This document shows, in pieces, positions 41 through 1,515 of a DNA stretch of 64,000 bases; positions within the stretch are counted from its first letter, which is position 1, and the number at the start of each line of letters is the position of its first letter. Made by a program: the position numbers and the translations under genes. Location of the stretch: the sequence record PQ666539; one strand, given 5' to 3'. This DNA is from Shigella phage sb1. A model generated the notes under the pieces. That model had not been told where the DNA came from. It saw only the letters and a program-made list of their open reading frames with translations, and did not search any database.

Positions 41-190
41 TTACTGCATAACTGTGATAACTGTCATGATAACACGTTGAATTCCGAACGCAAGAAGACC
101 TCCTGCTACGGCTGGAACAACACCTAAACCCGCCAGTAAAATGCTACCAGATACTAATGCAGCGCTTGTGATACCTATGAATGGACTCAT
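41..190 (-). CDS. small hydrophobic protein (49 aa)
   Basis: ORF MSPFIGITSAALVSG...; start overlaps gene 52 stop (ATGA); below ORF-track length cutoff. Confidence 0.45.
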   Translation of the reverse strand: MSPFIGITSAALVSGSILLAGLGVVPAVAGGLLAFGIQRVIMTVITVMQ

Positions 191-1515
191 TTGATTTCCT
201 CTAAATCTTTGGTGTATTCTGTAACTACATCAGTAGTTTTCCAATATTCGTTTTCTTCTTTCTTAGCTTTAGCTTCTTCAGCAAGTTTCTTTGCTTCATC
301 GGAAGTCATATGAAAAATATTCATTCCGACTAGTTTATCAACATAAGAAGAATACATATCAATTTTAGAAAGTTCTTCGGTCAGTTCTTTGCGAGTTTTA
401 CCTTGTACAACAATTTCACCTGAAATTACTTTCTTAATGAAATGTGCCTTGGCAAAAGCTAAACGAAATGCTGATTCAGTTTATTTGATTTTGTTATCAA
501 TTCGTTTTTGGACATAAGTTTTACGAACTTCAACGAAGTCTTTGATTAAATCAACTACATTATCGTAAACTTGCAGCTTTCCTTTCTCATTAATAACGGT
601 GATATTCTGGGAACGACGCTCAATCAACCCAAAGTCTTTCATGATTTTTGCGTGGCGTTCTTCTTCGTTATCGCTCAAAGAATATTCTTTGCGGAATTTA
701 ACTTTGAAGCCAAAACCATGCTCACCACAAGCATCATCCCACGTAATGAAGCCTTTATCTTCAAGCGGGTCTAAGATTTTACTCACATAAGTTTCACGAT
801 CATACTTATACGGAATCTCAGTGATATGCATTTGAGTTCGTGAAGTAAACTTGTATGTTCCAAGAATTTCATATTGACCGTCAATTTCAACTACTTCACC
901 ACGAAATTCTGGGAATTCTACCTTAGGTTTAGTTACTTTCTTTCCTTGAAGAGCTTGCAGTACAGCTTTCTTGACAGAAGAAACGCTATGAGGAAGAATG
1001 TAAGTTGCATAACCAGTTGCAATACCGGAAACACCGTTAAGAAGAACAGTAGGAATAATAGGCAAATAGAAAGCAGGCGGAATGTGTTCTTTATCTTGAT
1101 GTACCGGAGAATATTCAGTATATTTATATACATTATAGAAATTTTTACTTACACGAGCAAAAATATAACGACTTGCCGCTGCTTTTTGAACGGTACGAGA
1201 ACCAAAGTTTCCTTGACCATCTAACAAAGGAAAGTTATTATTCCAAGTGTTAGCCATCAAAGCACCTGCGTCTTGTGCAGAGTTTTCACCATGATGATAT
1301 CCATGGTCTGCTACACCACCTGCAATAGAAGCGAGTTTGTGAAACTTATCTTTATTTCATCGTGCCAAATCAAGAGCTCGAGCAATAAAAAATCGTTGAA
1401 CTGGCTTAAATCCATCAATCATATTTGGGATAGAACGATTTTCAACCGTGTACATAGCATAAGCCAATGCTTCATTATCAATGATACTTTTTAAATCGCG
1501 ATTATTCAGTTGCAT
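187..1515 (-). CDS. 52: DNA topoisomerase II medium subunit gp52, interrupted by two in-frame stops
   Basis: Full span 443 codons matches T4 gp52 (442 aa); ORF-track segment 481..1260 plus in-frame N- and C-terminal extensions; in-frame TGA at 1357-1359 and TAA at 481-483. Confidence 0.9.

Follow-up and report, generated by a model that had tools for sequence, protein, structure and literature searches.

In the deposited genome of Shigella phage sb1 (PQ666539), the gene encoding the medium subunit of a T4-type topoisomerase II, gene 52, is interrupted by two in-frame stop codons. Our analysis of a 64,000-nucleotide stretch of this record, hereafter the window, indicates that these stops are very probably mistakes of base calling or of consensus building in the deposited record of a T4-like phage, and no feature of the phage. 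They are almost certainly errors of the record, because they stand among about 34 stray stops spread over the whole window, some of which fall in indispensable genes. As judged by comparison with related sequences, gp52 of the actual phage is most likely an uninterrupted protein of 442 amino acids, with Gly53 and Glu345 at the two interrupted positions.

The initial annotation described gene 52 as three collinear pieces in one frame that add up to the length of T4 gp52, and this description holds. Translation of the gene on the minus strand yields pieces of 52, 291 and 97 residues and two stop positions, all in a single frame. When the stops are replaced by Gly and Glu, the repaired protein aligns from residues 1-442 to residues 1-442 of the T4 topoisomerase II medium subunit (8yo3_A, E = 7e-293), which has Gly at position 53 and Glu at position 345. 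The repaired protein also matches the Pfam family PF00521 (DNA_topoisoIV; DNA gyrase/topoisomerase IV subunit A) with 252 bits over residues 27-429, the gathering cut-off being 31 bits. These two results establish the gene as that of the T4-type medium subunit. The opal and the ochre codon that had been reported were both found in frame by direct translation, confirming that they are truly in the sequence and are no illusion of alignment. The annotated ORF of 259 amino acids (481-1260) is indeed the central piece, with the qualification that its length was counted from an internal TTG. The coordinates of the gene, its stops and the other features are collected in Table 1.

Table 1. Gene 52, its private changes, and the stops and frameshifts of other genes in the window
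Feature	Coordinates	Strand	Remarks
Gene 52 homologue, topoisomerase II medium subunit, GyrA-like cleavage subunit	187-1515	minus	442 codons and terminal TGA
In-frame TGA, gene 52 codon 53	1357-1359	minus	GGA (Gly) in relatives; private C>A at plus-strand position 1359
In-frame TAA, gene 52 codon 345	481-483	minus	GAA (Glu) in relatives; private C>A at plus-strand position 483
Gene 52 private G>T changes	A28S 1434; V43F 1389; R218L 863	minus	G53* and E345* are also G>T
Gene 52 private C>A change	V208V 892	minus	synonymous
Gene 52 private T>A change	L71H 1304	minus	
Gene 52 private transitions, only two	691; 262	minus	both synonymous
DNA polymerase gene 43, two TAA, codons 502 and 853	30026-31081; gene 29888-32584	minus	direct translation
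Replicative helicase gene 41, TAG, codon 118	25375-25377; gene 24301-25728	minus	direct translation
dCMP hydroxymethylase gene 42, TAA, codon 169	28407-28409; gene 28173-28913	minus	direct translation
Gene 46, TAA, codon 333	36676-36678; gene 35992-37674	minus	TAC in relatives; direct translation
rIIA, three TAA, codons 8, 279 and 282	7176-8000; gene 5844-8021	minus	direct translation
nrdD stop, codon 481	45399-45401		direct translation
Further stop examples	denB 4137-4139; region 62925-63279		
Private one-base frameshift, dda	about 15099-15108		one G of CCATGGAG missing relative to all four relatives
Private one-base frameshift, homologue of pSs1_00106	about 55801-55822		

The window belongs to a Tequatrovirus, and its best matches are the Shigella phages sb2 (97.8%), sb3, sb4 and pSs-1. 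Over their shared sequence, sb2 and sb4 are about 96-97% identical to it. Its gp52 shares 98.2% identity with that of pSs-1, with zero gaps. The AASRYIFARV segment is identical to that of T4 gp52 in the alignment described above, and we take the Tyr of AASRY to be the catalytic tyrosine, assigned from the AAMRY motif of GyrA. The surroundings of the gene are also T4-like: a small membrane protein, gene 52, ac-type small proteins, a 26-residue Stp and ndd. In its length of 442 amino acids, its end-to-end alignment, its unchanged AASRY motif and its ac/stp/ndd neighbourhood, the window gene therefore resembles that of T4 gp52 (PDB 8yo3/8ylu; PF00521). It differs in that the T4 ORF is uninterrupted, as are those of pSs-1 and sb3, whereas the window carries TGA53 and TAA345 together with the substitutions A28S, V43F, L71H and R218L. 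As deposited, gene 52 lacks the uninterrupted reading frame of a type IIA cleavage subunit, which we judge to be an error of the record.

Two observations on neighbouring genes can be added. The Stp homologue (1985-2065, minus strand), which has the ac-type small membrane proteins on one side and ndd on the other, is intact. The large topoisomerase subunit is encoded by a single gene 39 of 605 amino acids (8293-10107, minus strand) with no in-frame stop, as in pSs-1; the T4 gene is split into 39 and 60, whereas that of the window is unsplit, so that no gene 60 bypass element is present.

Comparison of the codons with those of the four close relatives revealed that each of the two stops in gene 52 is a single G>T change on the coding strand. 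We looked for the stops in other records using 61-mers centred on each of them against a phage collection, and exact 31-mer scans of IMG/VR. TGA53 occurs in none of the 572 matching phage records and TAA345 in none of 496; in both cases the best 61-mer match was 98.4%, corresponding to one mismatch. Neither stop was found in IMG/VR with exact 31-mers, where the wild-type controls were present in five contigs for codon 53 and in three for codon 345. The idea that the stops are a shared natural polymorphism was therefore abandoned, as the positive wild-type controls were accompanied by no further carrier in either collection.

The initial annotation treated the stops as a property of gene 52, and this is the part of it that did not survive, given that about 34 similar nonsense substitutions are found across the window, including in essential genes. 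With the 130 annotated pSs-1 proteins of the region as tblastn queries against the window, 34 in-frame stops of the substitution type were found in 26 of the 130 genes, 29 of them in the first 50 kb and five between 50 and 64 kb. Nearly all of the 34 stops are one G>T or C>A step away from the codon of the relatives, and they arise where such a change falls on a GAA, GAG, GGA, TCA or TAC codon. Beside them there are two one-base frameshifts and no further indels, and nearly all genes align end to end without gaps.

T4 genetics has established that genes 43, 41, 42 and 46 are essential. All four contain stops in the window, and a phage isolated from a plaque therefore cannot have the genome as deposited. 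Genes 41 and 46 also start with GTG (25726-25728 and 37672-37674, respectively). We considered these starts as possible further defects and discarded the idea; they are common to all four relatives and thus natural.

To call private substitutions, the first 50 kb of the window was aligned with pSs-1, sb2, sb3 and sb4. The 711 substitutions private to the window include 142 C>A and 96 G>T changes on the plus strand, together 238 (33%). The corresponding fractions are 6/301 (2%) in pSs-1 and 16/316 (5%) in sb3, while the sibling records sb2 and sb4 have 42/257 (16%) and 113/563 (20%). The counts of C>A and G>T in the window roughly follow the C and G content of its plus strand, and the changes are evenly spaced, with 6-17 per 2.5 kb. 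Their rate varies little among trinucleotide contexts; it peaks at CCG, with 13/437 or 3.0% against about 1.5% overall, although these numbers are low and GCT is likewise elevated. The GC content of these 50 kb is 34.27% in the window and 34.69% in pSs-1.

The distribution of these changes over codons bears no mark of selection. Of the private G:C>T:A changes that fall in coding DNA, 33 are synonymous, 160 missense and 24 nonsense (15/74/11%), against a random expectation of 9/79/12% for G>T and C>A on coding G/C sites. On the other hand, the private transitions of the window comprise 256 synonymous and 80 missense changes (76% synonymous), which is the usual footprint of purifying selection. 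The slight synonymous surplus among the G:C>T:A changes would be accounted for by a few real transversions. The load amounts to about 1.3% of coding G/C sites and is uniform, blind both to codon position and to protein function. The window carries two layers, one of ordinary evolutionary divergence and one of about 240 changes that were never exposed to selection.

Gene 52 took its proportional share of this load, six changes of which two are nonsense. Relative to pSs-1, sb2, sb3 and sb4 it has nine private differences: six G:C>T:A changes, one T>A change and two transitions. The six changes compare with an expectation of 6.3 (475 G/C sites x 0.0133). The gene contains 53 sites at which such a change can generate a stop, giving 0.71 expected stops and a probability of 0.16 for two or more.

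These counts bear on the reading in which gene 52 is a true pseudogene whose nonsense alleles are tolerated by means of the host gyrase. T4 gene 52 is conditionally dispensable; the phenotype of topoisomerase II mutants is limited to DNA delay, and the gyrase of the host can stand in for the missing enzyme. The stops do exist in the sequence, and for gene 52 taken in isolation a real null allele is conceivable. However, changes of this class also break the essential genes 43, 41, 42 and 46 in the window, their number in gene 52 equals the unselected rate of the genome, and the other 32 stops would be left without explanation. Nor does the gene show decay: apart from the stops it is 98% identical to its intact relatives, and its private transitions are all synonymous. 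The sibling records, moreover, are each stopped at a different codon of gene 52. We therefore regard a pseudogene as very unlikely. The classical DNA-delay mutants of T4 gene 52 provide a useful comparison, as each of them carries one laboratory-derived amber (TAG) allele in a genome that is intact elsewhere. The window has in common with them a nonsense codon in gene 52, whereas its own opal and ochre codons occur among about 34 stops.

Another possibility would be that full-length proteins are made despite the stops, these being decoded by a suppressor tRNA, by programmed readthrough or after reassignment of stop codons. In its favour, stop reassignment is known in some other phage groups, and many genes of the window have in-frame stops while being otherwise intact. 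However, TAA, TAG and TGA are all used, in place of Glu, Ser, Gly, Lys and Tyr, and the same codons still terminate genes. Every stop lies one step from the sense codon of the relatives, and the nonsense share equals that expected from random G:C>T:A changes. In addition, the stops of gene 52 are conserved in no relative among the 496 and 572 phage records or in IMG/VR. This pattern effectively refutes any decoding of the stops already, and we consider it exceedingly improbable. ARAGORN found no tRNA gene in the window, the tRNA cluster of the phage lying outside it. The genome report gives ten tRNA genes per genome, of which at least Arg tct, Asn gtt and Tyr gta have ordinary sense anticodons (PMC11993411).

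It could also be imagined that gene 52 naturally consists of three parts, each translated as a subunit of its own, in the manner of the T4 39/60 split, given that three collinear ORF pieces are present. Their arrangement argues otherwise. After TGA53 the next in-frame ATG is at codon 87, 34 codons on, and after TAA345 it is at codon 386, 41 codons on; restarting at either would lose conserved residues. No relative among the phage records searched shares the split, and its boundaries are single-base changes of the error class. Separately translated fragments, which the initial annotation had named, together with reads confirming the stops, as what would refute it, find no support. A natural split has, in our estimation, a negligible probability. 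The readings specific to gene 52 are rejected because stops occur at a random rate throughout the window, essential genes included, and because no restart codons are nearby.

The problem recurs in two sibling records. The window record comes from a study of four phages from lake water in Kolkata, namely ADG1 (PQ666539, 164,945 bp) and sb2 to sb4 (PQ666540-42) (PMC11993411). The study predicted 285 proteins for ADG1 and 291 for TMC4 (sb4), against 254-255 for each of the remaining phages, and of the four ADG1 is lowest in GC content (PMC11993411). Gene 52 is intact in pSs-1 and sb3. In sb4 (PQ666542) a private stop lies at codon 143, along with numerous missense changes; in sb2 (PQ666540) the private stop lies at codon 407, and the natural terminator of the gene has been lost. 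The gene is therefore privately broken in three different ways in three records of the same study, which fits independent errors and not biology. In positions 1-50000, sb2 and sb4 annotate in pieces the DNA polymerase, rIIA, nrdD, modA/modB, gp44, gp47, endonuclease VII and others. Both thus resemble the window in their G:C>T:A excess, their fragmented essential genes, their own private stops in gene 52 and their start coordinate, and differ from it in the codons that are stopped and, for sb4, in a surplus of A<->T changes, which make up 154 of its 563 private substitutions. The window starts at exactly the same base as the pSs-1, sb2, sb3, sb4 and Ec_YwIITB1 records, an agreement suggesting that pSs-1 served to orient, or possibly to scaffold, the assemblies.

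As for the source of the errors, the G>T and C>A changes would arise if oxidised guanine (8-oxoG) paired with A during library PCR, a physical cause that we infer from the kind of change. To reach the consensus, such damage would need a very low effective library complexity or coverage, with few unique templates, or faulty assembly or polishing. In the study, DNA extracted with CTAB was sheared enzymatically, with an input of 50 ng, and the Illumina libraries were amplified by PCR; the assembler was SKESA (PMC11993411). Artefactual C>A/G>T changes from 8-oxoG formed during sample preparation, with a preference for CCG, have been documented previously (PMC3616734). The window resembles these artefacts (Costello et al. 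2013, PMC3616734) in its large excess of C>A/G>T and of no other class, unrelated to codon position or gene function, and in the different severity between libraries of one study; the top rate at CCG rests on 13 events. We also considered miscalls by Nanopore or at bases modified to glucosyl-hmC, and found no support for them, as the study used Illumina and the rate hardly depends on trinucleotide context.

Several observations run against the error reading. Oxidation artefacts are normally found at low allele fraction and in acoustically sheared DNA (PMC3616734), yet the changes of the window are consensus calls, sitting in an assembly from enzymatically sheared libraries. The CCG context is only weakly enriched. 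Moreover, the window and sb4 have 17 G:C>T:A variants in common in the 50 kb compared, whereas about two would be expected by chance, plus a background of about 3-10 seen in other genome pairs; this is more than independent random errors fully explain. Two of the shared variants, both G>T, lie in gp52 (D132Y and A136S, 1108-1122) and are absent from 673 other phage records. Possible sources of the 17 variants are reads that crossed between libraries, hot spots of damage, and true variants that both phages have.

In a further reading, the G:C>T:A changes are real, having arisen, for example, in a heavily oxidised or mutator lineage whose defective genomes were kept by complementation at high multiplicity. 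The variants shared with sb4, D132Y and A136S among them, give a weak hint in this direction. If the changes were real, gene 52 would truly contain an opal and an ochre codon, alongside dozens of other nonsense alleles. We consider this reading highly improbable, and errors in the consensus remain the explanation that we favour.

The consequences extend beyond gene 52. Erroneous G:C>T:A changes occur about once every 200 bases in the window, in sb2 and in sb4, and should be treated as a flag on the quality of these data. The errors fragment about a fifth of the genes and inflate the gene counts, to 285 and 291 as compared with about 255. They would contaminate protein databases, analyses of pangenomes and core genomes, and scans for recoding, pseudogenes and split genes, and any other claim of a split gene, a pseudogene or recoding that is drawn from the window is suspect. 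With respect to the phage itself, the interrupted gene 52 is almost certainly an artefact of the record and biologically ordinary, and the phage would possess an intact gene 52.
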